Shown: positions 1,461-36,541, numbered from the stretch's first letter. The stretch is 64,000 nucleotides of DNA from Octopus vulgaris (GCA_951406725.2 OX597816.1:92442001-92506000); one strand, 5' to 3'. Notes: generated by a model not told the origin, from the sequence alone. Numbers and translations are program-made.

Positions 1461-1513
1461 GTTAAGAGCGCAGGGTACTAACCCCAAAATTCCGAGTTCC
1501 AGGCAATGACCTG
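1461..1513 (+). mobile_element. Left half of a solo Penelope terminal-repeat module (tRNA-like head, 5'-truncated)
   Basis: GTTAAGAGCGCAGGGTACTAACCCCAAAATTCCGAGTTCCAGGCAATGACCTGA aligns to 36222-36280. Confidence 0.8.
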
Positions 1514-1549
1514 AATAATAATAATGATGATGATGATAATAATAATAAT

Positions 1550-1627
<78 letters not shown>
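1514..1627. repeat. (TAA)n microsatellite, 5' flank of R4/Dong insertion
   Basis: Directly visible AAT repeats with a few GAT variants. Confidence 0.97.
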
Positions 1628-1630
<3 letters not shown>

Positions 1631-4324
1631 AAAGATTTGCCTGAAATAAAAGAAAAGCTGAAGCAAGATATCCTTGCCAAAGAACAAAGGATCCGCCGGT
1701 ACAAGAAACGCCAACGCTTCTTTGAAGAAAACAAAAAGTTCAACTCCAACCCCAAAAAGTTCTACCAAGAACTGGGCAAAAATAAAATAGAAGTCACTGC
1801 AGCACCAACGGCAGAAGAATTGGAAGAATTCTGGAGAGAAATATGGTCGGCGAACGAACCACCAAAAAAAAAGGAGTATCAAAATAACAAACTCGGCATC
1901 TGAACAAATTTGGACCCCCATAACAACTGAAGAGGTCACCCAGGCACTGCAAAGACTAAGCAACTGGAAGGCACCTGGGCATGACAAGATCCCCAACTTC
2001 TGGTTGAAATATCTAACAAGTATGCACAAAAAGCTGGCTGAAAACTTTAACAACGTACTAGCAGAGCCAGAGACAATGCCTGAATGGCTCACGAAGGGGA
2101 AAACCATCTTAATTCCCAAATCAAATGAAACAGAAAACCAGAAAACTACAGACCAATAACCTGCCTCCCTACTATGTTCAAGGCATTTACTGCAGTGATA
2201 TCACAAAGGCTGAACAAGCACCTGGACGAAAACAAACTGTTCCCAGAAGAGCAGAAAGGATGCCGCAAAGGCTCATATGGCTGTAAAGATCAACTAATGA
2301 TTAATAAAGCCATAACTGAAGACAGCCACAGAAAGAAGAAAGGCCTCAGTATGGCCTGGATTGACTACAAAAAGGTGTTTGATAGCATCCCCCACACATG
2401 GATCCTCGAAACACTAGCCATTAACAAAGTAGCACCAACAATCATAAAATTCATAGAGCACTCTATGAATAAATGGCAAACAGTCCTACAACTCCAAACA
2501 AAAGAGGGACTCATGAAAACCAAAGACATCCCCATTAGAAGAGGAATATTCCAGGGAGACACGCTCTCTCCACTCCTTTTCTGCTTGGCACTGTCACCTC
2601 TATCTGATATGCTAAATAGAACTGGATGCGGATATAAATGTTACGGCAAAACGATCAGCCACCTTTTATATATGGATGACCTAAAACTATACGCTACAAA
2701 TGACAAACAGCTGGAAACACTATTAAAGACAGTTCATGGATTTACCAAAGAAATAGATATGAAATTTGGATTAGAAAAATGCGCCAAAGTAACCATGAAA
2801 AGAGGAAAACTAGTTAAGAGTAACAACATCACACTAGATAAAACCAATTTAATAAAAGAATTAGACCAAAGCCAAACTTACAAATACTTAGGAATCCATG
2901 AACTAGATAAGACACAACACACACAAATGAAAGAGAAAATAAAAAAGAATATTATAGACGAGTTAGATCAATACTAAACACAGAGCTCAATGCTAAAACA
3001 AGATAATAGGTATCAACACTTTAGCTGTCCCAGTTATAAGTTACAGCTACAATATCCTTAACTGGACACGAAATGAACTGACCAAAATAGATAGGAAAAC
3101 AAGAAAAATAATGACAGGATCTAGGATGCATCACCCAAAATCTGACATAGAAAGACTATATATACAACGTATAGAAGGTGGTAGAGGCCTTATACAGCTG
3201 GAAAACTACTATAAAATAACCACCATAGGACTGCAAAAATATCTACTTCAGAAGGAAGGAAAACTGATCCAGATAGCGGCAAAACACGAGCAAAACAAAA
3301 AACTGTTCTCAGTATTTAAGGAAGCTGACAAATACAAACAAGAAATCATACCACCTAATAAACATGAAGAAGAAGAAGAAGATGAAGAAACAACAAAAGC
3401 TATAAAACAAATGAAATCCAAACTAAAAATAGAACAGCAACGAACCATGATAAAACGATGGCAAGAAAAGCCCCTTCATGGTAAATACTGGACTAAACTA
3501 AACGCAAAAGAAATAGACAAAGAAAAATCCCAGCAATGGTTGAGAAGCTCAGGACTCAAAGCAGAAACAGAGGGATTTTCAATTGCAGCACAAGACCAAA
3601 GCCTCCCCACCAGAAACTACCAAAAACATGTAATGAAAAGAAATATTACGAGTAACTGCAGAATATGTGGAGATGGACAAGAAACAATAAATCATATTAT
3701 CTCTAGCTGACCAGTCCTGGCTAAGAAGGAATACATTCACAGACATGACAGAGTTGGAACCTACATACATTGGAAGTTATGCCAACATTATGGAATAACA
3801 ACAGAAAAAAGATGGTATAGGCACACACCAGAAAAGGTCACAGAAAACGAGAAAGCAACCATACTCTGGGATATGCTGATACACACAGATAGAGAAATTA
3901 AGGCCAACAGACCAGATATAGTTGTCAGAGACCATGAAGAAAAAAATGCTTTCTAATTGATGTATCAATACCGGCTGATGACAACGTGTCTCTAAAAGAA
4001 ATGGAGAAACTCTCAAAATACAAAGACCTGGAAATAGAGGTAACTAGAATGTGGAATCTGAAAACAGAAACAATTCCTATCATAGTAGGTGCATTAGGCA
4101 TGATAAAAAAATATTCAGACAAATACATAACAAAAACACCAGGACTTATAAACACATATAACATACAGAAAATTGCACTACTGGGCACTGCACACATCCT
4201 ACGCAGAACACTTTCCATACAATAATCATCAGAGCATCACAACAAATCACACCACATACCCAAGGCACACAGAGCTGCGCTCGGTAGTGAAGTGAAAGCA
4301 CGCTATAAAAATAAAACTACTGAA
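1628..4324 (+). mobile_element. R4/Dong-clade non-LTR retrotransposon (RLE type), 5'-truncated and frameshifted
   Basis: ORF pieces 1637-1903, 2174-2977, 3111-3710, 3986-4225: RT motifs (EQKGCR, AWIDYKKVFDSIPH, GIFQGDTLSPLLF, HLLYMDDLK, YKYLG), HPKSDIERLY..R.EGGRGL, CCHC knuckle CRICGDGQETINHIISS(C), RHD, RLE motifs RPDIVV...IDVSIP...EKLSKYKDL, C-terminus ALLGTAHILRR; short 3' UTR running into (TAA)n. Confidence 0.93.
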
Positions 4325-4345
4325 CAATAATAATAATAATAATAA

Positions 4346-4545
4346 CAGCAACAACAACAACATCGAAAAATACCTTAGGAATGAGAACCCAGGATTCCAA
4401 CTTCCCCAAGACACCTGATGAAGGCTGGAGGGTATATCAGCCGAAACGTTGTGTCAACAACAAACAAGATGAGGATAAATATCCGTCAAACGTGAATAAT
4501 ATACATAATACCTCATCTCTTAGATATAGAACTGTATGCTATATT
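4346..4545 (+). mobile_element. Right half of the solo Penelope terminal-repeat module (contains hammerhead ribozyme)
   Basis: CAACATCGAA...ATGAGAACCCAG...CCTGATGAAGGCTGGAGGGTATATCAGCCGAAACGTTGTGT...GATGAGGA.AAATATC.GTCAAA aligns to 36360-36492, downstream of a GIY-YIG ORF. Confidence 0.8.
4410..4455 (+). ncRNA. Minimal type I hammerhead ribozyme (Penelope-type, probably dimer-dependent)
   Basis: Stem I GACAC(4410-14)/GTGTC(4451-55); core CTGATGA(4415-21) plus extra A; stem II GGCTG(4423-27)/CAGCC(4438-42); GAAAC(4443-47); loopless palindromic stem III AACGTT; putative cleavage triplet GUU(4448-50). Confidence 0.8.
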
Positions 4546-10453: not shown

Positions 10454-13400
10454 TATAGCGCTATTAAAACTTAGGAGATTGAAGGATGATACGATACATA
10501 TAAAAATAAAATAAACTGTGGTATTTAAACAATCGCTTTAGTTGTAGTGCTAACTCACCGACTTCAGAACAACAGTACAGAATACAACAACGAAAACAGC
10601 AATAATGGCAATGTTAATATTGATTTCTGAATTCTAAATTTTAATGTCAAAATAAATTATATAAGAATTAGCAATACCTAAGGTAAAGTTCATTTAAGTA
10701 TAATTTAACTAAATATACGTATGTGAATACAATTTCAAAATATAGTGAATTAGATATATTCAATGCAGTCAAATTTATGAAAAAAGATACATCGACAGAA
10801 GATTACTTCTCAACCACGGCTCAAATCCCGTGTTCAGTTCTGTTTGCTTCCACTTCAACTACAAATATAGGACATTATAATTCTGAACGGTGAGTTAGAC
10901 ATTCTGACATTTTATTAATATTTCCCGGTTTTTCATTCTGGACAATAGAATGCATTTTATTAAGAACCTGATGGCTAGCACTTAGCTCTTTACAATGCTT
11001 TTTCGTACAGCATTATTTTACCACTACCATAATGTAGAGAAATATTTCCGAAATAAGCGCAGTGAACGAATTGTCACAATTAATTCAGTCACGAAATTGG
11101 TTAAACTAACACATATTACAAAAATTTCGGAACTGATTTGCATTGAGGATAACAGCGGATACTCAAGTACAGCTTGAAGATGGGTTTTAAAATTTCTACT
11201 GAGCACTAAAGATGCATTTATAACTGTAAATGTCATGTCAGTTGATGTATTATATTATGTATTAAGTCATTTATGTATTATATTGACGTGTAGTAAAAAA
11301 AGTGTATCAAAACTGTTCATTTTTCTTGATGTGGAAGTTATTTCAAAGTATTTCGATAGGGCGGATTTAATATCTAGTTAATATCTATGCCCACTGGAAG
11401 CCATATAGTATTGTAAATTTTACCTAGTAATACCCTACTGAGAAAAGCGACTCGATATGATAAGATATTAAGGATGAATGGTAAGTGTTGTGCTTGATGT
11501 ATACTTCAAACTGTATCTCACTATAACTGACCACTCGAGAGAAAATATTTGGATGAAAACGATTACATTACTTATATCAATGATTAATTACCAGATATTT
11601 CTTTGCGACTAAGTAACAGAAGGTAGCAGTCATAGGAATTATATTCATCCATATTTGTAGCTGAAATAATAGCAGAAGTATGTGAAGTAGCAGATAGAAA
11701 GACAGTTAAAATCAGCGTCTTATGACTTGAACCGTAATGTGTAGACGTGAGCTTGCTGCCGAAGTTGTTGCGATTGCCCATACTCAATTTTATGTGATTC
11801 TTGAACTTGGGAAAAGGATCAAAGGTGACACTAGACATTCAAAGATTTAGAGACCAACGATATCATTCTATTTATTTACTAAGACGTGTGTGACTTGTGT
11901 TCTTTGTAGTATTTTTATGTATGAGAAGTCATCTAGCCTTCTGGTATTAAGAAGCGTAAACGGTGAACAATCCAAATCAATTAACTTATTACTGAATCTG
12001 GGAAAGAAGATTTTTCTGAATGATGTCGGATAGCTTTCTCAATGATACTGCCATGAAATTAAACAAATTGACGTTAGCCACAAGAATCCCGATTTTGTCT
12101 AAAAAGCATAGCATTAAACTAAATACGATTTGAACCGCTGCTGTCTACAATCAATCTATAAAGATACTTGAAGGATTTACCCTTTAAAAAATTCAAGAAA
12201 CATAATTAGCGATAGCAATATCCCAACTGAAACAGAGATTTGAAAACAAAAGCTGCAAGAAGAGTTTGTTGCTATATCAAGTTCCTACATCGATATATAT
12301 AATGTCATTTCCTTTCTCTCTGAGAAAATGTTTATATCAATATTAAAGAATCCACACACATACAAGCTGTCCTCTAAACGGAACTTTGTGCATTTTACGC
12401 AACAGTCATATGATATCTATTTACACGTCCGGAGAACTTTTGTCGACTGTTAATTGTAAATATCACCCCCACCACCCCACACAGATCTGTTCTCTGCATA
12501 TTTTCCTTGTATTCATCTGCCCACGCTGATATGACCACTTTTACTCTTCTCTCGTCATCTGACAACAGCGGTACGTAAACTGGTAAGATATCATTTAATA
12601 AACTGGCCGCTATTTGAATCGATAACTATATCAAACTATATTGTAAACAGGAGACCGCTCTAATGACATTTCCTCATATCAAGTAGCCATATCTGTATTT
12701 ACTAATGTCACAAAGACTACTTAATCACAACATTAGCCATACGCATATATATATATATATATATATGAAATTGTGCGTTATCTATGTTTGCAAAGAGGTT
12801 TCCACGCTATTATCAATCTACATACACAGAAAGCATCTATTCAATGCACGTCGATTATAACAGATTTATTCAGCTAACATATCCTGGTAATTCACTACAC
12901 TTTTATACTCTCTCATCTGCGCTTCTTTGATATTTATGTTCCAGTTTCAAACCCCCTCTTTTCTCTCCCTTTTCGTTTTCTGTTTTTGTTTTCACAGTCG
13001 TTGAGAATACATTTTTAAACATACCTTATTAGTAGCATTGTTCTTTTTTCTTGTATTTAAAAGAAAGAAAGAAAACATCCCTGTATGCATAAAAAAACCA
13101 TTTCATTTTTATTGCTATTATTGTTACTCACATCACTTATTCTGTCAACATGATGTCTGCTAAGCTATCGTTAAAATATTTATTTAGCAGCAATTGTTTA
13201 TATTTTAGCTTTTATAGATTTTTGCTGATGCCATTATTGATAGTATCGCTGTGTAACCCTTGACACTTCTAGTTTTATAGGACCACAGTGTGGGCCCCAT
13301 TAACAGAGTTATTAATTTTTCCGACATTTTTTCCTGTTTCCATTTCTATCAATATAATTCGGTTTCGTCGCGACTCGAATGTTAAGTATTGTTTGGTCTT

Positions 13401-14376
13401 ACTGTAACTGTGATTATTATCAGTAGTGCGCAAATAGTAACTGCATTGAAGATAATAGCACTTTGCTCATTGACCACTAATGAAAAATGGGCTGATTCTC
13501 TCCATCATATTGACTGAGACGGTACTAAAACTCTAATCTTGGCAACGAACCTAGATACAAAACTCTGTTTCCGAATTTATTTCTTTTTATCTTGCTGTTA
13601 ATTCTGTTTTCCGATGGAAAACAACTTCCCATTTTCATTTCCCTATAATCTAATTTTATTTCCTTCTTCTCAGCCTTCTTTCTTCTTTCTTGTCTGAAAA
13701 CGCAGTCATCCACCCATATTTCCACCCCTCGTTCCCTCCTATAAAACATCATTCTTCTCATATCATTTTATACTTGTTTGATTTCACCCATTCCTCAAAC
13801 TATTTTTCTCCAACCTCTGTAAACTGTCACACGGCTGGGAATGTGCCAAAGTAGATTCATTCGCTTCTTTGAAATTTATTTCTCTCCTTCAAAGATGTAA
13901 AACATGCAAAATTGTGTAATGTGACTCGGGTTTCTTGTCAAAATATAGCTTCTCTGAATTATTATATCCAGCTTCAAGAGTTCATTTATATCCATATATT
14001 TGTTGCTTTAAGATACCTTGTATTTATTACAGTTTGTTGCGAAGAGCAATTTAGAATATATTCATTTTAGCATGTATGTTTACTCACATGTTTCCTGTTT
14101 GAAATATGAAAATACTCATCCCTTCTGCACATATTAGCTTATTTCCGCGAAGAAAGTGGATATTGCTTGCTATCAAAAATAGAAAATACTTCAGGACAAG
14201 CCTTTCATATCTAGAATACCCAGGAAAAAGTGAAAGACAGAGATACAGAGGTATAATTATATGCGAACAGAGAAGTTATCTATGCAATGGCATAAAATGT
14301 AGTTGCAAGGAATATATATATACACATACATACATGAATATTTATGAATGCACACACAAACACACACACACATATA

Positions 14377-14860
14377 CGAGTTGATATAAATAAGTTCCCG
14401 GACTGGTTTTGTAGCGCGCCAATACATCGTAACACACGGTTGTGTGCGCAGTGAGAGCTAGCAGTGATCTTCCTAAGGCAGTGTATCGAGTGTCATAGTG
14501 CATTTACTTCGCAAGTCGTGAAATTCGTGTTTCTCTGATCACGTGTATGCTGTAGTCTACGATTATGTCATGGACAGAAACAAAGTCAACGTAAAATTTC
14601 GCGCTGAACTTGGAGAGGCTTCTATAAGGATATTGAGCATGCTTGGCAAGCTTAAGGCGAAGAGGCATGGGGCATACGCAATGTTTCAAGTGAGATGGGT
14701 GCTTCAAAAGCGGAAGAACGCCCCTGGAAGACCACGAGCAATCTGGAAGACTTGCCAGGGGCGTCACACACTCGGAGATGTGGTATTGTGCTTCGAAGAT
14801 TGGGACTGTCAATGAAGAGTTCTACTGTGGCGTTTTGAAGTGTTTGAGGGAGGACATTTA
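14377..14860 (+). mobile_element. Internally deleted mariner-type element
   Basis: TA-CGAG terminus; ORF 14543-14815 has the mariner N-terminal pattern NVKF.AELG..S...L.ML; downstream GTVNEEFYCGVLKCLRE motif. Confidence 0.65.
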
Positions 14861-14924
14861 AAAATCAAATCCTAAAACATTTGAGGGAGAAAATTTAAAA
14901 CACAAATCCCAAAACTTTTTACAT

Positions 14925-15200
14925 ATTTGCGAAAGAATCCTCTACGGTGCGTTACAAGATAGGGCCACTGTTCGAAGAAACTGGCTTACTGGAGGCAAAC
15001 ATCCAAAAGACAAGTGAAATTCTAATGAAACAATTCCACAGTTATCAAGTTTCTTCTTAGTAATATGCATATAAGCCCGACGAATTCAACGCTTCACCTT
15101 TACACAAGGAATAGGCAAGTGTCGATTACATCGCAATTGAAAGAGGAGGATGGAATATCAGCCACTGGTGAGGTGAACTCGAACTCAGCAATGGGCTCTG
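14925..15200 (+). mobile_element. CR1-like LINE remnant (linker before RT)
   Basis: Plus-strand translation KESSTVRYKIGPLFEETGLLEANIQKTSEILMKQF resembles the CR1 ORF2 IGPL...G......AEILN.QF motif. Confidence 0.5.
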
Positions 15201-16733
15201 AGAGAGAGAGATAAATAATAGCAACATAGCTACATATAAACACACACACACGCGCACACATGTATAATATATGTATATAAATATATATATGTGTATGTGT
15301 GTGTGTGTGTGCATGTGTGTGTACGTGAGGTGTGTGTGTGCGTGCATCTGCGTATCTGTATGTATATATGTATATATACAAGTGCGTCGGTGTGTAAGTT
15401 TTTTTGTTTCTGCGAACACATAAGCTTAATCTTACAGCTGAATGGCAGTTCATAGAGACCCAAATAAATATACTTAAGGCAGGCTGTAAATATGCTTACC
15501 AGAGAGCACGTGATTAATTCATTTCATGAATCATTTACATTGATCAATTAAACGGTTTACATTAACATTCATCCGTTGTCAATATGACATTATTTCTAGT
15601 ATATCAATTGAAAAGCACTTTCTTCCCTTCTAGTCTCCCACTCTAGTTTAACTTTGTTTGTATAGCCAGAAAACTGGTCAATTCCTAACCACGCTTCCGA
15701 CCCTCAGAAAAAGGGTTTATTTGAATTGTATACAGAATGATGCAAAGTTTGAATGAAAATAAAATGTGAAATGAACTACGTATGTTTTTTTTTTATTTTC
15801 TTTTATTCTTACTGAATTCATTTAGCTTGTTGGTGACAGACGCTACAAAAACCGAACTATGAGAGGATGAACTTAAGTGGATGAGAGAACATGAAATAAA
15901 TTTTGCAATGTAATGAAATACTTATTATACATCAAAACGCTTATATACCGAAACCAATAGTGATAACGTATTAACGCTTGCTAACTGAATCTGTTCTTGT
16001 CCGAGAAGATCTATAAAGAGAAATATATTCCAGTCATGAACATCCGCTTTTGATTTTCAGGTAGAATGTCGTCCAAGATAGTATTATTGTATGAGTCTTT
16101 CTTTTATTAAAACGGTAAGAAATAATTTAAAAGAAATTTGGCTACACCATCGTACAGGATGAGCGAACATGCAAAGTGTTAACTTTTTGCAATAAATATG
16201 CTCAACAATATATAACTAGATGCATTTTGCTAGATAGACAGCTCAGTCAAGAGATCAATGTTTGGAACATTACTATAGTATAGAATTCGGGCACTTACCA
16301 TCAATGATTTGGAAGTTAAAATAAATCCTTATTGATTAGGCGCATGCATAGCTGTATGATTATGAAGTTGCTTCGCAACTACGCGGGCTGAGGTCCCATG
16401 CACTGCGTTGCAAGTTGTGCATGAGTCTTCTATCACAATGAAAGTTCGACGAAAATCTTCTTGAGAAAAATTCGCTGGAGAGAAATTGCAGGTAAGGTCG
16501 ACAGGATAAATCGCCCCTGTTTTTTGGTGAGTGACATAAGGTGCAGCCTGACTTAACAACACTACCTGATCATTGAATGCTTTTAGTGGACCATAATACA
16601 TTACATACATTCGATTATTTGCATGAATAATGTGAGAAATTCCTTACAGCATATGCAAAGAACATGAAACATGACATTAATGTCGCCTTTTCTCCTTTAC
16701 CACGACAATTTACAGGTAGACAGACTGACAGAC

Positions 16734-16796
<63 letters not shown>

Positions 16797-16807
16797 TAGA
16801 TAGATAG

Positions 16808-16838
<31 letters not shown>

Positions 16839-17039
16839 CATACATGCATGCATACATACATGCATGCATAGATATATACAGCCTCTCTGTGATGTTGTTT
16901 ATACTTTCTGTAAACCCCTTGTCATTCATGTTAAGGAAGTCTGAAGGATATCTTACTGGTTCACCAGGAAACAGAAATACCAAAATTACACACTGTTTCT
17001 TTGTGGATTGGCGTAAAACTTTATGCAAAGAATATGCAT

Positions 17040-17570
17040 GAGATGAAAAAGAGTCTTGACCAAGTTACAACATTTTCAAAGGCTGTAGGGTTGGAGTTTG
17101 TTTAGGATAAATGTTGTTATATGGTTGTGAAAATGAGGAAGATTATAAACCAGATAGTAACATTTCCATCAATAATTTGACTGTTTCCCCTGTACCTGAC
17201 GAAGAATGTTATAGTTGACTAGGGGGTGGATGAAAATATATTTTACAATGGCACCTGTAACACATCGCGTGTCACTAAAGAATATTACAGCCGAATAAAG
17301 AAAATTTGGACCTCATAACACTCTGCATTTAATAAAACAGTGGCCAACAATGTGTTTACAGTACCAGTACTAATACAAACATTCGGGCTGCTTGATTGGA
17401 CGGGGCATTGCCGTGAAAACCTGAAAAATACTTACGAGCACACATAATTTCCACATAAACAGTGACGTAGACCGTCTTTACCTAAAACGTAAACAAGGCG
17501 GCAGAGGCTTAATATCGATCCAAAATGCCTTTGAATGCCACATCATATCCGTTCGGCAACATCTTTTAAT
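17040..17570 (+). mobile_element. R4/Dong-type LINE remnant (distinct family)
   Basis: TFSKAVGLEF..DKC; NKTVANNVFTVPVL; FHINSDVDRLYLKRKQGGRGLISIQNAFE. Confidence 0.8.
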
Positions 17571-17789
17571 CACCAAGCGTCGAAGTGCATCCCTTGACCA
17601 AGTTTGCATACATGAGCCTGATAACATCATAAGACTTGGAAGGTAGCTGGCCCAGTGATTGCAATCCCTGAATCAAAATCCCTGGGCACTGACATAGAGT
17701 AGTGATGCATCTTTCCAGATGCACATTACTAAGTTGGTAATATAATGCAGGCGGCTGGCTGGATGAAAAAAAAGACAACATGATGGTCA

Positions 17790-18360
17790 TCTGGAGGACG
17801 TTTGATCTCAGTCGTTTAGACCACTGCTACCCACATAGTGTAAAATTGACGGCGGAATCCGGCGAAGCTACACGAGGAAGAACGTCTCAATGAGACATGT
17901 CAGCTGGGGAGAGAAGCTGAAAAAGTTAAGACTCTACTTCCTAGGCAGGAAAGATAGGAGTGATATATGTCTGGAAAATCCTGGGAGGACACTACCAAAC
18001 ATTGCCATTGAAAGTTACAGCTACAACAGAACGAGAAACCACGGCATAGTGCCAAAATCCCAATATTGCCATCAGAACATAGGACCAGATACTGCAACAT
18101 CTTGTGTTTGAAGGGCTCTCATCTTTTCAACACCATCCCAAAACGCCTGAAAGACCAGCATGTGGTGAATGTAGCCATCTTCGAAATGAAACTGGTGCCC
18201 GTCCTGTTAGGAGTTCTGCATGAACTTACTTCGCTGCAGGGAACGCAGCTGAAGGGCAGCAAAATCAAACTTTATCATTCACCAAATGTTACACATCAGA
18301 AGTTTCAAGTAGTAAAAGTGTAGCAAAGCATACTTTGGTATTGCAGAATGGCTGCAGCCC
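17790..18360 (+). mobile_element. CR1-like LINE 3' end
   Basis: ORFs 17890-18111 and 18066-18323: SWGEKLKKLRLYFL, GSHLFNTIPKRLKD, FEMKL..VL, a CR1-type ORF2 C-terminus; followed by TA/TAGA/GA microsatellites. Confidence 0.7.
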
Positions 18361-18376
18361 TTGAGCTGAAACTAGT

Positions 18377-18426
<50 letters not shown>

Positions 18427-18434
18427 TATAGATG

Positions 18435-18517
<83 letters not shown>

Positions 18518-18745
18518 AAGAAAGAAATACATCAAGAGGCTTCCAAACAGGAAAGCCTTGTGCTAGAAAGAGCGGTAGAAAACTCAAACCACCAATTAAG
18601 GATAATTTCTACTGCTCTTTCTAGCACTAGGCTTTCCTATTTGGAAGCCTCTTGATGTATTTCTATGTGAATAATATATAGTCTAATAACTAAGTTTTTT
18701 TTGGTGCTAGACCACTGGTAATAATAATTTCTTATTACCCTATTG

Positions 18746-18790
<45 letters not shown>

Positions 18791-21771
18791 TTGTGTGTGT
18801 GTGTGTGTGTATGTTTGCATATATATATATGAAATAATGATGCATGTATACATAGATGGAGTAACGCATATACACACACTAATGCGTATGCGCGCGTATT
18901 CATACACATATATGTTTAATGTACAAACGATTGTTTTCTTAACTATTGCAACAACTGCAGCAAGTATAAATGATTATTCGCTTCTATTTAATCAATGTGA
19001 GGTATCTTCCAGCAAACAAGTTGAGTTTGAATATCTAAAACAAGCTCTTTATAACAATGTTAAAGAAATGTGAAGATGTAGCGATAATAATTCATTCATA
19101 TCCACGACTTGAATATCATTAGCATTAAAATGTTTCTACCGGTAAACTCTATTGTCTTTAATTGATAGTTATGGTTTATTTTTATTTGGCTTCTCAAATT
19201 CAAACTGGTTTTGACATTTAGAAGATCGTGATTTTTTATTAATTTGCCGTTAAATTTATTTAAAATGCCTTGTGTATTGAGCCATTATGTAAATAAAAAA
19301 GACCCTTTTAGCTACAGATATGCTGGTATTTATTATTCTCCAATAAATTTCAGTAATTTTTAAATTGCATCTATTCAATATTATGTATGTAATGTTCATT
19401 TTATTGTTTCCTTTCGTAAGCAATAATAATAATCTGACTAATTTATTGTTAGTCATGTGAACGGCATCTTTTGTGAATTAGAATGTAGAATACTTCTGGT
19501 TACTTCCTAGAAAGCCTTCTATTTCAGGGATGCTTTCCAAGTATATTACTATTATTCATTTTATCAGCTCGTGAAGGATGAGATTCGGAATTTATTCAGA
19601 CAGGATCTGAATGCAATAATGCCATATACCAATTATTTAAGACACCATGAAACAGGGACTCTATAGTTCGTCAGTTAGCCTTATTTCAGTATATTAAACC
19701 AGAAAAGAATTGAACACAGAAATAAAGATAGGAAGGGAAATATCGTAATGCGTTTAGGTTTTAGCTAAAACCACCATTATTGTTTAAGTTTAGATGTTTT
19801 AAGTGCATCTTAAGAAATATTTGCGTGATTAGTAAATTGGCATTTCTGTACAGGGCGAAAAAACAAAACAAAAATGGTTATTCTCATTTAAATTCAGCAA
19901 TAAATAGTCCATGTATTGAAAGGTTAAACAAAAAGTGTTTTCAAATTTGACTCACATGTACAAGAAAGTTTACTTTCTTTCTGTGGCAATAATTGTATAT
20001 AACTAATTTGTATTTCCATGTCTAAGGACTGCACGGTTACGCGTATTTTCTTAGTTTACAGTATCAATTGTGCTACCACCTAGGTTGTAAAAGTAAGCAT
20101 TACATAGCAAAACTAGTGTTCTTGCAAAGCAAGGAACGCGCAACCTAGTTAATTTTCTTTCTTTCCGAGGTTCTTAACATCACGATTGTATTTAAGGAGC
20201 ATGGATTGCATTTCTACACAGCTCTTCTACATGAAGAAAATAAACACATGTCTTACTCTCCTTTATAACAGTGTGAAACCAGACAAGTTTGAGTTTCGAG
20301 CCAGAAATGATGTTGCGTGAACTACGAAAAGTAACGTAGCATATAGAAAGTTAATTATTTATCAAACCAAGTATATTAGTTTTGTTGCTATTTGTTGGAA
20401 TTACTAAACTAATGGGTTTTCGCTTATGTTGGCTATTGTTCCACATTTTATGCAAGATACATTAAAATATGGTTCCATTTGCTGGATTTACTTTAAATAA
20501 ACATAATAGTAGAACTGACTTATAACTGTTGAAGCGAAGTGATCTTACTGTCCATGGATCATTAGAAATTACATTATACACAATAATAGGACACCATTCT
20601 GTTTTGATCCAGTTCACTGTTGGTGAATAAATACTCCTCTTTAAAGATTTAACTCTCATCTACATAGGAACATGAGGACTAGCAATAGATTTTTCTGACT
20701 TATCTTGCCAGCTTATCGCCAAAAGTAATGTGTTTTTGATATAAACTCTAAAGAAGATGTTCTCTTGTGACGTACGCGACAACGTTTAGCGTATTCTCGT
20801 TCGAACCTGCGGAAACATAAGAAGAATAACTATGCGAGTCATGTGTGTGTGTTATCAAAAAATTCAACCGATATTTCGCTTTTTTAATACTAGGACATCT
20901 ATAGGTTCTGACAATATTTCAAGTGTATGAATCAGAATTAGTATACATTTTAATATCAATAATAAATTTCTTGCAACACATACATATAACAACTTCTAAA
21001 TGAACGACTTAGATTACATTATCCCGACTCAACTTATTTATACTTACCCTAATACAAAACTCTGGTGTGGTGTCCTAGTATATTTATTTCTCTAGAATTT
21101 CACTCATTATTAAAGCCTTTTTCATAAACTAATGTTCACTATTAATTAACTTAAGCTATACATCAATAGTCTCTAATCATAGAAATCATAGTAAAGGAAG
21201 ACAAATAATCTTAAAATTTATTTCTTCATAGTCTTGATCGACTATTTTTAATGGAGGTTTAACATACAGAGTATTACTAAAGGTCTGAGAAATATAAAAA
21301 TTGCGGTGAAATTGTAATAGACAAGCTTATATAAAAATTATTTCTATTTGCTCAGGAAATCGTATTCTAAAGAGAAATTTCTTTATATGACCAATTATCT
21401 CATTGTTTAAATTTTATTCCTATAAATTTAGACACTGTTAAAACATTGTTTACCTGTGAAATGCAGCTATTTAGTCATGAGTAAGGCCTTCTTAAGCAGT
21501 TCTATAATTTCTATAACTAAACGCATTCTAGTTATAATCATCAAATCTTCCTACAGATATCTGTTACTAAATTATTCCATATGTTCTTTGCATATACGTT
21601 AGTGCTAGATTTAAGTGTTGTTTTTTTAGTGACATATAGATTCTGTAGAGGTTTTAGGAGATATTTTAATGTAGCTGGTTTATGTCATTCGTTTTAATTT
21701 CATATGTAATAGAAGCCATTTTCATTATATTCTTTCGATAGCCAAAACTAAATAACTAAATAAATAACAAA

Positions 21772-22955
21772 TACGAGGTCCTATCAGAGCGTTCTTGGAC
21801 CGGGATTATATAAGTTTGAATATCTACTATAGTAAATAATGATAACTATATTATTTATATTCTAACACAACGTCTTTCCAATTAGCACTCTTGGGAATGT
21901 ACACAGCAATTCTAGCATGTCTTACACACTTTAAAGTACAGCGAAAGTTTTATTCTGGAAGGCAGCCTTGCAACCCACAATTCGGTTTAAATTTCCTCTT
22001 CTGACCTGGAATAGTGCCTCTTGAACTTCAGTTTCATTTTGGCAAACATTTAACTCACATAGAGTGAAATGTGAAAGGTGTGAATCGTCTGGCATTGTGC
22101 ATTTTATTAAAAATTTGCGTCGTCGTGACCTAGCAATTTGTGAACGGACGTGTTGTTATGATCTAACGACTAATAGCTGTTGCATCATAACAGTTTTGGA
22201 AATGCACATCAATCAAGTACTTCGTAACGTCACAGTAAAAGTCAGAATTTATCTTACTGTCGGGAAAAATAATCAGTGAATGGTGCCTTTGATGTCGAAA
22301 AAGAGAAAAAAAATAACATTGGGTATGCTTTTTATTGCCCTCTGAACTTACTGCGTTGTCTTTGATCATGATTACTACGAGCCCTTCCACGACAACGACT
22401 GCTGTTTTGTCCTTGGATGTTAGACGTATACTCAAGTTTCACAAGAACGATACTTCTAGAGCGACTAATCGCTTCGTCGCTAGCCTTGTAATGAAGCACA
22501 TGACATCTCAATACATCGCAATGATCAAATGTCTAGAGTTCAAACAACTGGTCAATATACAGCAGTGACTGTGTGTCGAGAGATAGATGACAAACTTTGT
22601 AAAAATAGATTCATATTCAGGAGATCTTGGAGAATATCACTTTATAACTGATTCCACTCACACGAGAGAACTCTTAGTTTGTTCAGTTTCGTTTCTTCAT
22701 TGATGATTACACTATATTTGTCTTTTATTTTTTCTGGCCTTTTGCTAACGATTACTCAACTTGGAAACATCATCTTGAACCAGCATTCCACTGGCTTTGG
22801 AATACATGTATCATTCAAAAACATTTTCCTTTAAGCAAAAGAATTTTCGCATTCGCGGGACATGGTACCAATTCGCAGATCTTCACACCAATCTTAATGC
22901 AAGCGCGTTATTAGAAAATTCAGACGTCGTAAAAATTACATCGTTACACCCCAGA
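21772..22955 (-). mobile_element. Decayed mariner element
   Basis: TACGAGG terminus at ~21773; minus strand near 21880-21935 reads like the mariner C-terminus (..NCCVHSQ..); degenerate transposase-like sequence through 22900. Confidence 0.5.
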
Positions 22956-24029
22956 CTATAATTGAACACGGATAAATAGCCTTAAGTCTGTTTGATGACT
23001 GATTGTGTAAATTGGCAACCAGCGATCATCAGCTGCATACGCTTTTCCTTTGAATAGTACGTTCACATCATAAGACAACCGGGGACTTTGTGATAACACT
23101 TTGAAACAAACTGATAGCAAAACTGATAATACCTGAAAGTCATAAGCCACTGAGACTTATTAGTTTTCAGCAATTGCATTTTTATAGAGTTTTTACGATG
23201 AGAAACCTCACATTTCAACCGAAGTCAAATATATCAGCATATATTGTCTTTTAGCACATAGACAAGACGTTAAATCTTTAATAATGCATGAGCTCACTTG
23301 ATAAAAAGACCAGAAGTCACACCTGAGGATTTCTCCACATGATACAAATGATCTAAATTTCAAATAATAAGATTCAATTAGATGTTCTCTACCTGAATCT
23401 AGAGACTCTTATGTTCACAATGTTCACAAATAGTATCTGCTAAAATCTTTCAGCTTCTCTCTATGGTGAGCTTACACACATATACACACCCACACAAACA
23501 TGGAGAAACACACTCACATGGTTATTAGTAGTACATGCGCTTGAAGTGAACTAATCAAAACGAGATTAATATTTCATGTTAATATTGCAACTCCGAGTTT
23601 TTTGTGCGAGCAAACATATTTTGATACTTCTTTTTACATATATACATACATACATACATACATACATACATAAGAGAAAGTTTCAAGATGTCTGACGAGA
23701 TAGTTTCATGAGCCAGGAAATTTTATGTTGCATGGAGCTGAGTGAAGCCATTAAGAAATATATGTAACACTCCAAAAATGAGTTGAGTGCTACTTTCTTT
23801 CGTTTGTCCGCTTAATCGGGCATATGTATGTGTGTGTGTATGTATGCATTCATGTATGTATGTATGTATGTATGTATGTATGTATGTATGTATGTATGTA
23901 TGTATGTATGTATGTATGTATGTATGTATGTATATGTACATGTGTGCGTGTGCGTGCTTTATACATGATAGTCCGCACGTTGATCAAAATGCTGTGACAA
24001 TATTTGTAACAACCTTTTATTAATATTAA

Positions 24030-24240
24030 GGCGGAGAGCTGGCAGAATCGTCTGCATGCCGGACGAAATGCTGCAAAGCATTTCGTCCGTCTTTACGTTC
24101 TGAATTCAAATTTCGTCAACGTCGGCTTTGCCTTTCATCCTATGGGGACCGATGAAATAAGTACCGGTTACGTACTGGGACCGATGTAATCGACTAGTCC
24201 TTCACCAACTTTTCAGCACTTGTCTCATTATTGGAAAGGA
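24030..24240 (+). mobile_element. tRNA-derived SINE (Nin/Deu-like central domain)
   Basis: GGCGGAGAGCTGGCAGAATCG head, B-box-like GAATTCAAAT, GCCTTTCATCCT..GGGG.CGAT.AAATAAGTACC core; same family at 49273-49682, 52320-52740, 57757, 58370; followed by (CTA)n. Confidence 0.75.
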
Positions 24241-24241
24241 T

Positions 24242-24297
<56 letters not shown>

Positions 24298-24409
24298 TCC
24301 TACATTTTTGTAAATCTTAGATACATTTTAAACGACCCGGATATTTCAGTTAGGGAGCAATTAATAATAAGTCAACAAACCACCTTTAATACTTCCTTTC
24401 CTGTGCTTT

Positions 24410-25010
24410 ACATAGATAAGACTTTCCTTTAAATACTTGCTGTACCAAGAATTGCTGTCTTTTACCTGACCTGTAACCTCTCATTAATTCCCATGCAAGT
24501 TCTCGAAACTGCCCGAACTGCATCTCAATGCTTCAGTCATCACTGGAACCTCTAAAACCTTCCTCATCCGCAACAATTTTTCAACTTCCTCCTTCTCTGA
24601 CTCATATTTCTCCATCTTTTCATGCTCTTTATCTTTCACACTACTAACTCCTGGGATAGAGGTACCGATAATTTCGGCCTGTTTTTCTTTCTGATTTTCT
24701 TGCCTCAATCATGCCATCACATTGAATGGTGAAGTCCCACAAAAGCTTAAATTCGTCATTTTTTAACACCCCTTCAGTTTCCTGCTCATCCCATTTAGCT
24801 GCTTGGCGAACCCACAATTCTCAGATGTCACCCAGTGTCTATATATAGCAACATTACCATGCCATTGTCCATACTTAGAGCATTCACTCACAGGATTGTT
24901 GAGCGTTCCTCCTTTTCTACCGCGTATTTTACATAATGGTGATTCATTTTTTTTCAACATGATGTTTAATGTAGTTAGTTCGGAGAGCATGCACCTAGGC
25001 CGTTGAAAAC
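24410..25010 (-). mobile_element. R4/Dong 3' remnant A of tandem stack
   Basis: SPLCKIRGRKGGTLNNPVSECSK..WHGNVA.Y.HW (decayed CCHC/RHD); LWDFTIQ; KEHEKMEKY; AILGTASI. Confidence 0.75.
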
Positions 25011-25059
25011 CAGAGATAATGAACATCACCATCATCATCGTTATCGTTATTATTAGTAT

Positions 25060-25860
25060 TTCTTTTTATCATAGGTTTTGTTGGAACTCCTAGTCTTGCA
25101 TGCGTAGCGGGCTTGTTGCCTGCAGTCTACGGTACCATGTTATCCGTTCTTTTCATCTCTCTAATACTTTCCTGATTATTCTGGCCATGTCAAGGAGGCC
25201 AACATTCTATAACAGTTCTGCTAGGCACTATATTCCGATTTCGTTTATATTCCTCTTGATACCTTCTGATACTGTCCCCAAAGACCCAACAATAATTGAC
25301 ACTGTCTCCACAGCCAGGCTATTTCGTATGTGATAGGGTTGTATTTATCTATTTTTTCGCCTTCTTTTTTGACTTCGTGGACCGAATGGGTGCCCAACGT
25401 CGGCTATATAACATATGTGGTGCATCTTATCGTCTACCCCTAGGTCCGGTCTGTTATGCTCTAGCATCTGATCTGTTTGGATTGGGAAATCTCAGAAGAT
25501 TTGCAAGTTTCCGACTCTGCCACTCTCTGCGGTTTGTGCTCATACATCTCCTGGCCTCTCATTTTTCGCATAGTTTCCAATATAACACTCCCGCTAATTG
25601 ATCGTGTCGCCACAACTTTTAGTGGTTTTGAGCGAGTTTAAAGAATTCGTTCGTGATATGGGCAATGGTTTCAGATGCAGCACAGCGAAGGCACTTGATT
25701 ATTCCTAATGTTGGACCTCCAATTCATAGCCAAAGATTGGTCTTGCACTGCCAGTATAGTGCTCTCAGACTATTTTTTCAGTGTTCTAATTCTCAGAGCC
25801 CTCGATTTCACTTGTTCTGGCTAATTTTTTATGGGCAGACATCTTTTTGTCAAGTGTCTC
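25060..25860 (-). mobile_element. R4/Dong 3' remnant B of tandem stack
   Basis: CLRCAASETIAHITNEF.KLAQ..KLWRHDQLAGVLYWKLCEK; DFPIQTDQMLEHNRPDL; 3' UTR shared with 26260-26565. Confidence 0.8.
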
Positions 25861-25879
25861 ACAAGGCCTCTTTCTACGA

Positions 25880-26250
25880 TACTTAACATCCAGGTAAAAA
25901 TCTCGCTGTCCCCAATAAAGCAGTTTTCTGAATTTCTCCAATAACTACTAAATGACATTTACTTTTTACACTGCCCACACTCATACAAACTCATCTTGTA
26001 CTTCCCGATCTTCTCCAGTTGTTTATCATCAACTCATACATCCTCAGGCATGGCTATATCTATGATCTTCGTTTCCTTCATGATTTCTTCAGCTACGAAA
26101 GTGTTTAATCTCCGAGCATTAAACACTGAATCATACTGTATTGTAAAATCCCACTGGATCTTCTAATCATTCACTCTGAAGACTTCTGGTCTATGCTCGT
26201 ACCATTTCAATATTCTTTCAACATCGTACTTCTCTCATAATCTCCAATGA
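25880..26250 (-). mobile_element. R4/Dong 3' remnant C of tandem stack
   Basis: HWRL*EKYDVERILKWYEHRPE...WDFTIQYD...IIDIAMPED...EIQKTALLGTARFL. Confidence 0.75.
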
Positions 26251-26259
26251 TCATTATTA

Positions 26260-26565
26260 TTTCTTTTTATCAAAGGTTTTGTTGGAACTCCTGAAGTCTT
26301 GCATGCGTAGCGAGTTTGCTGCTTGCAGCCAACTTTACCATGCTGTCTGTTATTTTCAACTATCTAATACTTTCCTGATTATTCTAGCCGTGCCAAGGAG
26401 GCAAATCATTTGTAATAATTCTACTTGGTACCCTATTCCAATTTCCTTTATATTCCTCTTGATGCCTTCTGATACTGTAACCAAAGACACAACAATAATT
26501 GACACTATCTTCACCTTCACTTTCCATAGCTGGGCTATTTCGAACTTGAGAGGGTTTTATTTATC
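26260..26565 (-). mobile_element. R4/Dong 3' remnant D (same family as B)
   Basis: TTCTTTTTATCAAAGGTTTTGTTGGAACTCC...TCTTGCATGCGTAGCG matches 25060-25130; encodes LLQMICLLGTARIIRKVL. Confidence 0.8.
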
Positions 26566-27845
<1,280 letters not shown>

Positions 27846-27888
27846 TTTTATAGTATTTTATAAATATTATATTTATTATTATTATTAC

Positions 27889-27937
<49 letters not shown>

Positions 27938-27938
27938 A

Positions 27939-30900
27939 TTTTTTTTCCCTTCTTTCTTCAAATTTTCCTCCGTTTCTCGCCGAGTGTTTTCCATATACCT
28001 AGGGCAGAGAAGGGCATTGTATGCATTCCCAGATTACACGCGCAAATTCACAGATAAAATATGTAGTTAAAAATTAATAAATAAATAAATTCATGGATGG
28101 ATGTTATTTTCACAGCGATAGTGCTCTTCTCAGTACATGAGCCGTTCCAGTTAATACGATTTTTTGCACTTCCTGTAGGGATGGTGAGCTTTGAATCAGT
28201 TTCAAATAGGTTTCAGTACCTTTTTTTTTATCATTCCTAGAGATCCTACAATCATTGGTACTGTAGTCGCCTTGAGATGCCACATTTTTTCAATTTCTAT
28301 TAGCAGGTCTTTATATTTACTAATCTTGTAAATTCTTTCGCCGCTATATTGTGATCACAGGAATACTCGTGTCAATTAATAAACACATCCTTTTTGTCTG
28401 ATCTTTTATAATAATATCCGGTTTATTAGCTTTTATAGTCTTGTCGGTCTGCACAGGGAAGTCCCATAGGATCGACACATTTTCTCCCTCAGTCACAGCT
28501 TCAGGATGATGTTTATACCATTTGTAAGCGGTTTTGATTTCATAATGCCGACATATTGTCCAATGTAAATACTGGCCGACTCTGTCATGTCTTGCTTTAT
28601 ATTCTGCAAGTGCTAAGACTCTACACCCTGAGATTAGGTGGTCTATTGTTTCAATCTCATCATTACAGAATCGGCATTTTGGGTCAACTCCATTTTTCAT
28701 CACATTGGCTTGGTAGTTCCGGGTTAATAAGCTTTTGTCTTGAGCAGCTAATATGAAACCTTCACTCTCTGCTTTTAGCCCTGAGCTTCGTAACCATTGG
28801 TGCGTGTGTTTCTGGTCGACATCAGCTTGTTTGCTACGGGCCACATACTTGCCAAGGAGAGGTTTCTGTTCCCATCTGCTAGCTAAATTTTCATGTGCTT
28901 TTGTCTTTGCAATTAATTTTCTTTTCTTTGCAGCTGCAGTTGGTGTATTACCTTCAGCCTGATCAATCTGGTGGGTATCTAAGAGATCAGCAGCGAAATT
29001 TTTGCTCTCTTTGAGAATAGAGTGAAGTTTTTTCAGTCTTCCATGTTTTTCAACAAGTTTTAGATTCCAATCGTTGGTTGCTTCAAGGTATTTGGCCAGT
29101 CCGATTGTGGTGGTTTTGTATGTAAGTTCAAGCTGGATCAAACCTCGACCTCCCTGAGCTCTGGGAAGGTAAAGGCGATCCATGTCTGCCTTTGGATGGT
29201 GCATCTTATTACAAGTCAGTAGCTTGCGGATTTTTCCGTCAATTTTCATTATTTCACTGGTATTCCAGTTAAGCTATATAGAACAACTGGTACTGCTAAG
29301 GAATTTATGGCTAACACCTTATTATATGCATTCAGCTCAGACTTCAGGACTGCTCGAACTCTTCTATAACATTCTTTCCTAACCTTCTCTTTCATGCTTG
29401 CATGCTGGATACCAGAGCCTTCATTTATTCCTAGGTATTTATAGGTTTGTTCCTGCTCAAGTTCCTTTATGACTATTTCGACATCTAATTCGATTGAACT
29501 AGACTTTACCAATTTCCCTTTCTTAAAAGTGGCTTTGGCACACTTTTCAAAGCCAAACTCCATCCCGATATCATCACTGAATCCTTTCACAGTATGTAAT
29601 AATCCTTCAAGCTCTTCATCATCTTTGCCCTATAGCTTTAAATCATCCATATAAAATAGATGGCTTATTTTTCTGTTGTCAATTTTGTAGCCTTATCCTG
29701 TTCTATTCAGTTTACTTGAGAGTGGTATTAGTGCTATGCAGAAAATTAGTGGTGAAAGTGAGTCACCTTGGAAAATTCCACAGTTTATGCTAATGTTGTT
29801 TGAGTGCAATACTCCATTAGAATGATATAATTGGAGCTTCGTGTTCCACAGTGACATACTATACTTTAAAAAATCTGAAATCACAGGAGAAATTTTGAAA
29901 ATGTCCAGCGATTTCAGAATCCACGAATGTGGTATGCTATCAAAGGCTTTTTTATAATCAATCCATGAAGAGGTGAGGTTTCTGCGCTTGTTATGGCAGT
30001 TCTCAAGGATCATGCGATTAATTAGGAGCTGATCTTTGCATCCGTATGAGCCTCGTCTGCATCCTTTTTGTTCAGTGGGGAAGAGGTTATTCTCTTCCAT
30101 AAACGTATATGTTTTCTCTACTAGAATAGATGTCAAAATCTTATAGGTAGTAGATATACATGTTATAGGCCGGTAGCTTTTGGGGTCTTTCGTTTTGTTA
30201 TTTTGGGGGAGGAGGTAAGTAATACCATTTGCCATCCAATGTGGTGTTTTTTCCGGGTCTTTCATAATACTATTAAATAGTATTACTAACATTTTGTGTG
30301 CGGACGAGAGTGATGAGAGCCAGAAATTTGGTACTCTATCAATACCGGGGGATTTCCACTTATGAACTTTCGTTAGTGCCCTCCTTAGGTCGGCGATTGA
30401 GATGTCTTCCCATACCTGTTCTTGTAGATTTTTGTAGTCATCTTTGGTGCGTTTGATCCACTCTGCATTTTCATTGTATGGTTTCTCATCACTCCAGATC
30501 TCCTTCCAAAAGTTTTCAACTTCTTCCATTAGGGGTGGATTTTCAATGGTTATTTTTTCTTTCCCTATTTCCCTGTAAAATGATATGGCATTGGATTTGA
30601 ACATCTTATTTTGTTTGTAGAATTTGATTCTTTTCTCAAATCTGCGTATTCTCTGAGCTTTTGCCTGAACTTTTTGTTTAAGTGTTTCTTTCGCTGACAT
30701 TGGTTCTTCTCTTGTTGAGTGTCCATATTTTCTCACAATTTTCCTGCCTTTTATTGATCTTACATCATTTTCAGAGATTAGCTCAGTTAATATTGATATC
30801 TCCCTTCGCAATAATTCAATTTCAGTTTCAATTCTACTCCTCCAGTTTGATTTTCTTTTCGAATTTGGTATTGTTGGCTTTTTGGGTATTAAACAGCGTC

Positions 30901-31790
30901 TTTCGATTACCTTGGCGACAGAGTAAATAATTTCATTTAAATTATTAAGATCGGGTTTTAGTTGTTGTATGATTTCCTGTGTAACGCAGTTGCCAATTTT
31001 TATTTGTGTTTTATGTTGGTGTGCATTTGAGAGTTTATGGAGTGGTTCCCTATCATTCATAGTTGTATGGCCTACAACTGCAAGCTCATTCAGAACTTCT
31101 TGCTTCATTTCAATGATAGATTTTCTGTGTTGTTCAACAAACATGGGGTCTTCAAATTCTGTTTCGACATCATTTTCCGGGCTGTTTTTTCTAGGGTCAT
31201 TATATTTTCCTTCTTCTTCAGGATCTTGAGTCGTTTCGGCAGATGGTCGCCTTTCAGTCAATGCTTGTGGCCCAACATTTCTCTCCTCAGCTTCGTTATT
31301 TCTTTCCTGACTTACATTTAGGTCATTCTCTACCATTTTTTTAATAGAGGTTAATTCTGCATCTGTGAGTTTGGTATTTCTGAAGATATCTCTTCTAATA
31401 TTTGCTAATCTGTTTTCATCGAGGTTTGGTCTGCTAGCTGGATTCCGGCTCCTATAAATTGTGTAGGAGTCTGCGGTGTGTTTTTCTTGGGTTGGCCTAC
31501 TTAATGCAAAGTAATAAGCATGTATTACTTCTTTATATTCTTCCCGGTTCCATTTAGTTCCTTTACTCTTTTGATTTTCTGGTCATTTTGGTGGTGAACT
31601 TTGGGTGCTTAATTTGGGACAAATCCCATTTAAGTGACCTTCCAGGTTCGTATTCGGGGAAGATATTCTGTCATTTGAAAATTTTTTGCCATCAGGCTGG
31701 CAGCCTCCTGACGGGCGCGCTTCCTTTATAACCATTGGACAAGCGATTCGGTGTACTGTTAGAAATTTTCTTTTCAAGTAAAGTTAAATT
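27939..31790 (-). mobile_element. Near full-length R4/Dong element F (related but distinct family), single ORF with few disablements
   Basis: In-frame chain 31777-31583, 31336-29693, 29590-29249 broken by point stops, then a frameshift to 29249-28344; N-terminal KWNREEYKEVIHAYY...LDENRLANIRRDIF...LTDAEL domain, RT (WIDYKKAFDSIPH, GIFQGDSLSPL, YMDDLK), CCHC CRFCNDEIETIDHLISGC, RHD, KPDIII/IDTSIP, C-terminus VLTGTAHVLRR. Confidence 0.93.
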
Positions 31791-31809
31791 ATTATATAGG
31801 GGCCTCATT

Positions 31810-31903
31810 TATCATCATTAGCAGCAGCTGCAGCCCGAGTAGTTGTAGCAGCAGCAATATCATTGTCAGCAGTTGCAGCGGCAGTGGTAGTAGGAATAGT
31901 AAT

Positions 31904-31945
<42 letters not shown>

Positions 31946-32066
31946 ATTATCATTATTATTGATATCTTCCTCCTCCTCCTCCTCATCATCATCATCATCA
32001 GCAGCAGCAGCAGTAGCAGTAGTGGCAGTAGTGGCAGTAGTGGCAGCAGTAGCAGCAGCAGCAGCG
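31810..32066. repeat. Compound trinucleotide array (CAG/TTA/CCT/CAT/GTA)
   Basis: Directly visible. Confidence 0.9.
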
Positions 32067-36204: not shown

Positions 36205-36277
36205 GGGCATATGGCGTAGTGGTTAAGAGCGCGGGCTACTAACCCCAAGATTCCAAGTTCGATTCCAGGCAGTGACC
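36205..36277 (+). other. tRNA-like (Pol III A/B box) segment within the Penelope terminal repeat; not a functional tRNA
   Basis: A box TGGCGTAGTGG, anticodon-like loop CT-ACT-AA, B box GTTCGATTCC, imperfect acceptor GGGCAT/GTGACC. Confidence 0.65.
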
Positions 36278-36291
36278 TGAATAATAATAAC

Positions 36292-36332
<41 letters not shown>

Positions 36333-36485: not shown

Positions 36486-36541
<56 letters not shown>

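Follow-up and report, generated by a model that had tools for sequence, protein, structure and literature searches.

A LINE of the Dong/R4 type in the genome of Octopus vulgaris lies inside the TAA repeat of a short module, and the same module occurs uninterrupted beside a Penelope element elsewhere in the same stretch of DNA, which raises the question of whether one retroelement family seeds the target sites of another. The window analyzed here, meaning the whole stretch, comprises 64,000 nt (GCA_951406725.2 OX597816.1:92442001-92506000), and positions are counted from its first letter. A preliminary description had proposed that the module (tRNA-like head, (TAA)n tract, hammerhead) forms the 3′ end of the Penelope element and serves the LINE as a landing pad. 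Self-alignment of the window bore out the geometry: the LINE is flanked by two pieces of the module, 1461–1599 matching 36222–36365 at 85% and 4305–4507 matching 36311–36498 at 82%, which when rejoined correspond to the module that lies whole at 36205–36489. The LINE sits within the (TAA)n, between an (AAT)n half and an (AAT)n(AAC)n half (Table 1). The split copy that it interrupts is thus real, but its 3′ limit is near 4537 and not at 4545, and the first ∼16 nt of its head and 5 nt of its B box are missing. Just 5′ of the split module, 1311–1406 on the plus strand holds an old Dong-like coding scrap with 50% identity to the protein of the window LINE, whose family we call Dong-A.

Our reading of the system, to which we assign a probability of roughly three in four, is that the module serves a Penelope family as its pLTR, in which a head of tRNA origin precedes a TAA tract and a hammerhead lying over the ORF start; that most of its spread has been as solo copies, with polymerase III the likely transcribing enzyme and the Penelope protein the likely agent of insertion; and that Dong elements enter it at about the ordinary rate for TAA.

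Table 1. Features of the split module, the Dong-A LINE within it and the Penelope copy with the unoccupied module (window coordinates).
Feature	Position	Strand	Evidence
Penelope pLTR head, tRNA-derived, 5′-truncated, B box damaged by 5-nt deletion	1461–1513	+	Alignment to 36226–36279
5′ half of module (AAT)n tract, 38 units	1514–1627	+	Sequence, repeat listing
Dong/R4-type LINE (Dong-A), 5′-truncated, frameshifted: RT, CCHC knuckle, restriction-like endonuclease motif	1628–4322	+	Domain search and translation
3′ half of tract, (AAT)n(AAC)n	4323–4361	+	Sequence
pLTR tail; open frame from 4381 = Penelope protein N-terminus	4362–4537	+	Translation, alignment to P0199
Minimal type I hammerhead, predicted	4410–4455	+	Fold and motif
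Inverted 5′ piece of Penelope ORF	35283–35430	−	Sequence, relatives
Decayed Penelope ORF 3′ part (RT end, GIY-YIG-type region) and short 3′ UTR	35431–36204	+	Translation; family relatives aligned
Complete tRNA-derived head; A box 36212–36222, B box about 36257–36266	36205–36279	+	Boxes; tRNA-Arg(TCG) alignment
Unoccupied (AAT)n(AAC)n tract	36280–36375	+	Sequence
pLTR tail, hammerhead core 36406–36441, helix I 5′ strand deleted	36376–36489	+	Alignment, fold

The (TAA)n proved to be a constant part of the module: AAT or AAC units followed the head in 29 of 29 non-index copies, which had been found with a query reaching only 6 bases into the tract, and its length between head and tail, measured in 33 copies, had a median of 45 nt (range 6–173). 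The composition given earlier also stood in outline, with a tRNA-derived head, TAA and a hammerhead, except that the 5′ strand of hammerhead helix I, kept in the split copy, has been lost from the copy at 36205. The head could be aligned colinearly over its full length to a tRNA-Arg(TCG) gene of the genome at a score of 64, against 39.0 ± 3.7 (maximum 56) for 300 shuffles, and this gene type was the closest among the 32 genomic tRNA genes compared (nine types; 32 of the genome's 34 tRNA matches). An A box was present in 39 and a B box in 47 of 59 heads; a cloverleaf was absent from the predicted fold. Neither Rfam (at gathering and E-value thresholds, for tRNA even at E 10) nor ARAGORN called a tRNA or a hammerhead, so both identities are based on motif, fold and alignment.

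The hammerhead of the split copy matches the minimal type I form as set out in PMC4209133: a core of CUGAnGA plus GAAA (core 4415–4421), a helix I of 4–5 bp (4410–4414 paired with 4451–4455), a long helix II (4423–4442) followed by GAAA, and a palindromic helix III remnant, with the cut expected after 4450. Helices I and II both appeared in the predicted fold, although a z score of −1.05 makes the fold alone not significant, and core and helix I were intact in only 17 of 39 tails. We classify it as a minimal type I hammerhead, a predicted self-cleaving motif. No RNA read ends fell at the predicted cut site, a count that is uninformative on cleavage since the libraries were fragmented. Farther along the tail, at 4493–4529 and in other copies, a 9-nt unit varies in number with the reading frame kept; the stretch also has GT..AG ends, and taking it out would bring a downstream AUG in frame, making it a candidate 38-nt intron after the hammerhead.

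The placement of the module at the 3′ end of Penelope was half right: it adjoins the ORF end, but it belongs to the element's 5′ end, as the pLTR that opens the next tandem unit. The Penelope ORF runs up to the module head in five loci (L012, L015, L020, L022, and L025), the module tail leads into the ORF start in L243, and the open frame in the window tail continues for 52 amino acids without a stop, with 43% identity to P0199, a full-length relative, at its N-terminus. Because the module stands both after the ORF end and ahead of the ORF start, it is the pLTR, with the hammerhead overlapping the start of the ORF. The other hallmarks of Penelope were found as well. There is a single ORF with RT (RVT_1 in L020) plus a GIY-YIG endonuclease at the C terminus, the latter recognized by motif in L020 and aligned relatives and giving zero Pfam matches; a pLTR lies on both sides of the ORF and overlaps its start, as pieced together from different copies, both being present in one copy only for L254 (described below); and inverted 5′ pieces and the optional 30–40 bp tail are represented by 21 of 30 inverted copies and two 3′ end sites. 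The assignment to the Penelope/Poseidon type was made on these features, the RT tree containing no named reference elements. The base of that tree is not resolved and pLTRs were not seen for most of its rows, so one origin of the heads and two cannot be told apart on it. L243 (100–1160) is itself a Penelope of nearly full length; both a Dong-A 3′ scrap and a 558-nt element lie in the tract of its upstream pLTR, the clearest nesting in a coding copy.

The nested LINE was labeled Dong/R4 by its domains, the 120 relatives listed having no clade names. Its RT matched RVT_1 at E 3e-32, and a second Dong-A copy at 26561–27857 showed, in translation, the CCHC knuckle and restriction-like endonuclease motif that follow the RT in this group; the longer Dong-B frame and the relative P0008 contained no apurinic endonuclease domain. 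Dong-A has 8,992 exact 3′ ends in the genome; all 30 of those examined ran into AAT repeats, and 31 of 40 visible 5′ junctions lay in a TAA tract. Insertion into TAA microsatellites is what is described for the Dong LINEs of silkworm, mosquito, and snail (reviewed in PMC3812793), from which we found no difference, and here several families coexist; PMC13282606 lists, for an octopus genome, five Dong-R4 families of recent activity. Best matches were at 98–99% for Dong-A and at 92–95% for the Penelope RT, and Dong-A appears to be younger than most modules.

Other Dong-type insertions were seen along the way. On the minus strand of the window, 26561–31960 is a three-element chain in which Dong uses Dong tails: Dong-B (about 27941–31760), Dong-A in the TAA tail of Dong-B, and an older Dong-like scrap beyond. 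At least three more Dong-type families, with differing 3′ ends and a common TAA target, occur in L157, L169, L175, L177, and L179. The 558-nt element, found after a Dong tail in L067 and also in L022, L072, L113, and L243, is abundant and non-coding, with fixed ends and a TAA tail; it inserts in TAA tracts, is often 5′-truncated, showed no tRNA head that we noticed, and may be the non-autonomous partner of a Dong family.

Whether the module is a preferred target was judged by comparing its share among Dong-A insertions with its share among TAA tracts at large. The insertion sample comprised 119 non-index Dong-A 3′ ends (29, 30, and 60 of the 70 remaining listed), of which one, ending inside the tract, was dropped; 89 of the 118 lay within 21 Mb of the start of contig 1, and near-identical locus pairs 7–80 kb apart (L049/L050, L166/L167, and L062/L063; local duplications) were counted separately. 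The random set was 600 kb, 60 of 80 drawn stretches on 24 contigs within known bounds, and held 63 tracts of at least five AAT units under one merging rule and 59 under another (2 of the 59 at an edge). A module tail followed the Dong-A 3′ end in 9 of 118 cases (7 of 59 plus 2 of 59; 7.6%) and the random tract in 3 of 57 (5.3%), a difference with a Fisher p of 0.75; against the ∼6% expected genome-wide, the binomial p was 0.42–0.45. The point estimate of Dong-A use of modules is 1.3–1.5 times background, and the 95% interval of 4–14% leaves room for up to approximately twofold enrichment. Extrapolated from 9 of 118, ∼700 Dong-A copies are nested in modules genome-wide. Among 100 listed Dong-A ends, one was near an exact tail motif, about 1.7 being expected.

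Counted from the side of the tracts, a Dong-type element came next in 6 of 30 module tracts (five by script, one by eye), in 7 of 53 other random tracts (p = 0.53 against the module tracts) and in 27 of 109 Dong-A tails without a module tail (p = 0.81); after the 29 best-matching heads it followed the tract once. Inspected by eye, the 63 random tracts were headed by a module in 4 cases, by a Dong end in 5, and by the 558-nt element in 9, four of these nine in one array.

The proposal that Dong finds preferred landing sites seeded by the Penelope repeat, in a commensal or hyperparasitic pairing that would explain much of the genomic TAA, can point to the constancy of TAA in the module, to nesting that recurs whether counted from Dong-A ends or from module tracts, and to a point estimate slightly above background. 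The four comparisons nevertheless gave no significant excess, and within sampling error module TAA was occupied no more than other TAA tracts, the outcome that the preliminary description had itself named as speaking against a landing pad; the one listed end near an exact tail likewise fell short of expectation. Dong tails were used as often as module tracts, a hyperparasitic tie between the two families found no support, and modules, heading 4 random tracts as against 14 for Dong ends and the non-autonomous element together, account for little of the TAA load, ∼6% of tracts. Nor was there an orientation bias specific to the module: inside modules and outside them, every insertion seen had the orientation of the AAT strand, so it is the tract that determines orientation. 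We consider seeding of this kind very unlikely. The nesting of the window, recurrent but at background rate, is ordinary: Dong-type LINEs use module TAA in proportion to its supply, as a target that is not preferred, and TAA-targeting LINEs take any TAA tract, those of other elements included. Several Dong-type families and the TAA-targeting non-autonomous element occur in module tracts at rates indistinguishable from those in other tracts, and the younger Dong-A would have met modules as one part of a large target pool to which each insertion adds a TAA tail. A literature search found no earlier report of Dong nesting of this sort.

How the module itself became so common is a separate matter. 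The 2.8-Gb genome contains 3,636 exact head–TAA junctions and 4,854 exact tail motifs; as 14 of the 49 tails inspected carried the exact motif, we estimate ∼17,000 module copies (range 11,000–27,000). Exact ORF–head junctions numbered 333 vs. the 3,636 head–TAA junctions, and ∼90% of module copies are solo, without ORF sequence. The Penelope 3′ UTR was found upstream of none of 30 pattern-picked heads, all lying in the opening 21 Mb of contig 1. The 5′ ends of 21 of these heads fell within −7 to +7 of the first base of the head and six lay further inside; the remaining three aligned to −17 to −19, with UTR sequence absent by eye. An adjacent inverted piece accompanied 21 of the 30. Measured from the predicted cut, the 3′ ends of 49 tails lay at +51 to +62 (26 tails) and +83 to +87 (16 tails), so that 42 of 49 fell in two clusters ∼30 nt apart. 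Two RT start sites and a 30–40 bp tail have been described in Penelope (PMC11167929), and inversions and 5′ truncation are general for Penelope elements (PMC8557442).

The RNA data agree on the 5′ boundary. In three raw RNA runs, 408–514 loose ends per run fell at the head start and continued as inverted head; they probably come from genomic copies that were read through, which confirms the boundary and not a promoter. In these runs and one contig set, RNA depth over the module was ∼5–10 times that over the ORF and equal on both mates.

A classical SINE has a LINE-type 3′ end (a simple-repeat or A tail) and is mobilized by a LINE, whereas the 3′ ends of solo modules are of Penelope type and tailless. 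The solo module thus likely behaves like a SINE moved by Penelope, yet it is not a classical SINE. No free-standing TAA-tailed SINE with the same head, as a possible donor, occurred among 59 heads, and a head-only SINE was rejected for the same set, in which the heads without a tail mostly showed Penelope-type inversions or inserts. Ohshima and Okada are said to have reported in 1994 that the octopus SINEs OK, OR1, and OR2 are tRNA-derived repeats, with OR1 and OR2 reportedly of arginine-tRNA origin. The solo module may be identical to one of these or otherwise already named; OR1 and OR2 are cited as CORE-SINEs in PMC4758252 and PMC4824008.

Judged from its sequence, the head likely works as a polymerase III promoter. 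The usual template for new copies would then be a short RNA starting at the head, reverse-transcribed from two internal Penelope/Poseidon start sites, and head and TAA may have entered the pLTR together, as a TAA-tailed tRNA-derived sequence. The three RNA runs, being unstranded and having no starts or ends piled up within the module, are uninformative on polymerase III. A different account makes the head a passive remnant of a captured SINE, the solo copies being truncated from a polymerase II tandem RNA and their 5′ ends piling up through RT stops or RNA processing. Such an account gains from the generality of 5′ truncation and inversion among Penelope elements (PMC8557442), from the fact that no RNA start was seen in the three unstranded runs, and from known non-autonomous pLTR derivatives without a tRNA head (bioRxiv 10.64898/2026.07.22.740005). 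We nonetheless find it doubtful: the A and B boxes are kept and the cloverleaf is not, a pattern closer to a promoter than to a processing signal, boxes recur at the same place in a second family, and no T4 run occurs in the module or in the ORF sense strand.

That second family is represented by L254, one of 79 metagenome loci: on this metagenome contig lies a full-length Penelope whose 855-codon frame is intact and whose two pLTRs match each other. Both of its pLTRs have an A box ∼160 nt and a B box ∼100 nt before the hammerhead, with a short AAT run after the boxes; the chance of such a pair in both pLTRs was 0.0006 by shuffling, and L254 was its sole carrier among 10 families, compared over the 39 loci that cover the ORF end. 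The likeness is one of boxes only, the head scoring 52 against the 32 tRNAs, no better than its shuffles (maximum 53), and ARAGORN at a lowered threshold gave scattered calls on relatives and none for L254. The RT tree does not group L254 with the Penelope family of the window. At L254 2018–2110 and 4809–4900 about 44 nt separate the A box from the B box, a spacing that we take to resemble that of an intron-containing tRNA, a possible source.

T4 runs bear on how far polymerase III might read. The sense strand of the window family contained none in 2,737 nt taken from two copies, where 3.7 were expected (p = 0.02 by dinucleotide simulation, 0.09 by synonymous-codon permutation), and its Phe codons were 3 TTT vs. 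17 TTC, Asn and Tyr codons being unbiased. T4 runs per kb averaged 4.2 in 48 related loci and were 0.8 in Dong-A and 1.7 in Dong-B. L254 lacks T4 in its RT–endonuclease region and has two T4 runs near the ORF start, L250 has a T4-free ORF region and no head, and two decayed pieces have one T4 each. Polymerase III might even make the whole ∼3 kb RNA of the autonomous, coding Penelope from the pLTR head, such promoters having been taken up more than once. We counted the T4-free sense strand, the TTC bias, the L254 boxes and the lack of T4 in the RT–endonuclease region of L254 for this extension, and the T4 runs of L254, the headless but T4-free L250 and the T4 in the two decayed pieces against it, and we offer it tentatively, as the weaker bet.

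Yet another function could be imagined for the tract: the TAA may be kept as the cutting site of the Penelope protein itself, building the tandem copies needed for expression, with its use by Dong a by-product. This would be compatible with a pLTR spread mostly as solo copies, but where flanks were inspected solo copies were not seen to insert mainly in TAA tracts, and no tandem formed by insertion into a tract was found; we think such a role unlikely.

In most respects the octopus family resembles the Penelope/Poseidon elements with minimal hammerheads described in PMC4209133 and, for the anole element PAc, in PMC11167929: an ORF with RT plus a GIY-YIG-type domain at the C terminus, a pLTR over the ORF start, a hammerhead at that start, inverted 5′ pieces, and two 3′ sites ∼30 nt apart. 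To these elements, as there described, the octopus pLTR adds the tRNA-derived A/B-box head and the TAA tract. A polymerase III promoter derived from a small RNA also occurs in the terminal repeats of TRIMp3 elements (Helenus, Ajax, and Cassandra; PMC10886601), where acquisition via SINE insertion is proposed; those are non-autonomous LTR elements, whose autonomous partners, it is argued there, must use polymerase II, whereas the octopus head lies in the repeat of a coding Penelope itself. The schistosome repeat SM-alpha (reviewed in PMC6765202) similarly combines a polymerase III promoter and a hammerhead in a short repeat, but the review presents it as tandem units with no tie to a coding element, while the octopus module is dispersed and belongs, as pLTR, to a Penelope that has been identified. 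Non-LTR retrozymes (bioRxiv 10.64898/2026.07.22.740005) are likewise non-autonomous, hammerhead-bearing derivatives of Penelope pLTRs; they are defined there by tandem arrays, whereas octopus copies are single or head-to-head and have the tRNA head. A literature search, with Repbase and Dfam outside its scope, found no coding Penelope reported to carry a head of tRNA origin in its pLTR.

Should the head prove to work as a polymerase III promoter, the solo module would be a SINE-like element driven by a Penelope rather than a LINE, with its parent identified. It would then bear on two open questions, the transcription of Penelope elements and the origin of short repeats with hammerheads, for which L254, being intact, is a test case ready to hand. 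For annotation, the warning is that in such genomes Penelope terminal repeats may account for thousands of copies filed as “unclassified SINE.”

Two further kinds of repeat were noticed in the window. Just 3′ of the Penelope copy, 36867–37887 on the plus strand is, by translation, a decayed Tc1-type DNA transposon. Another abundant short repeat family, which includes a 184-nt tandem pair and is often found beside TAA tracts, occupies 49273–49635, 24015–24249, 52375–52735, and 57741–58471.
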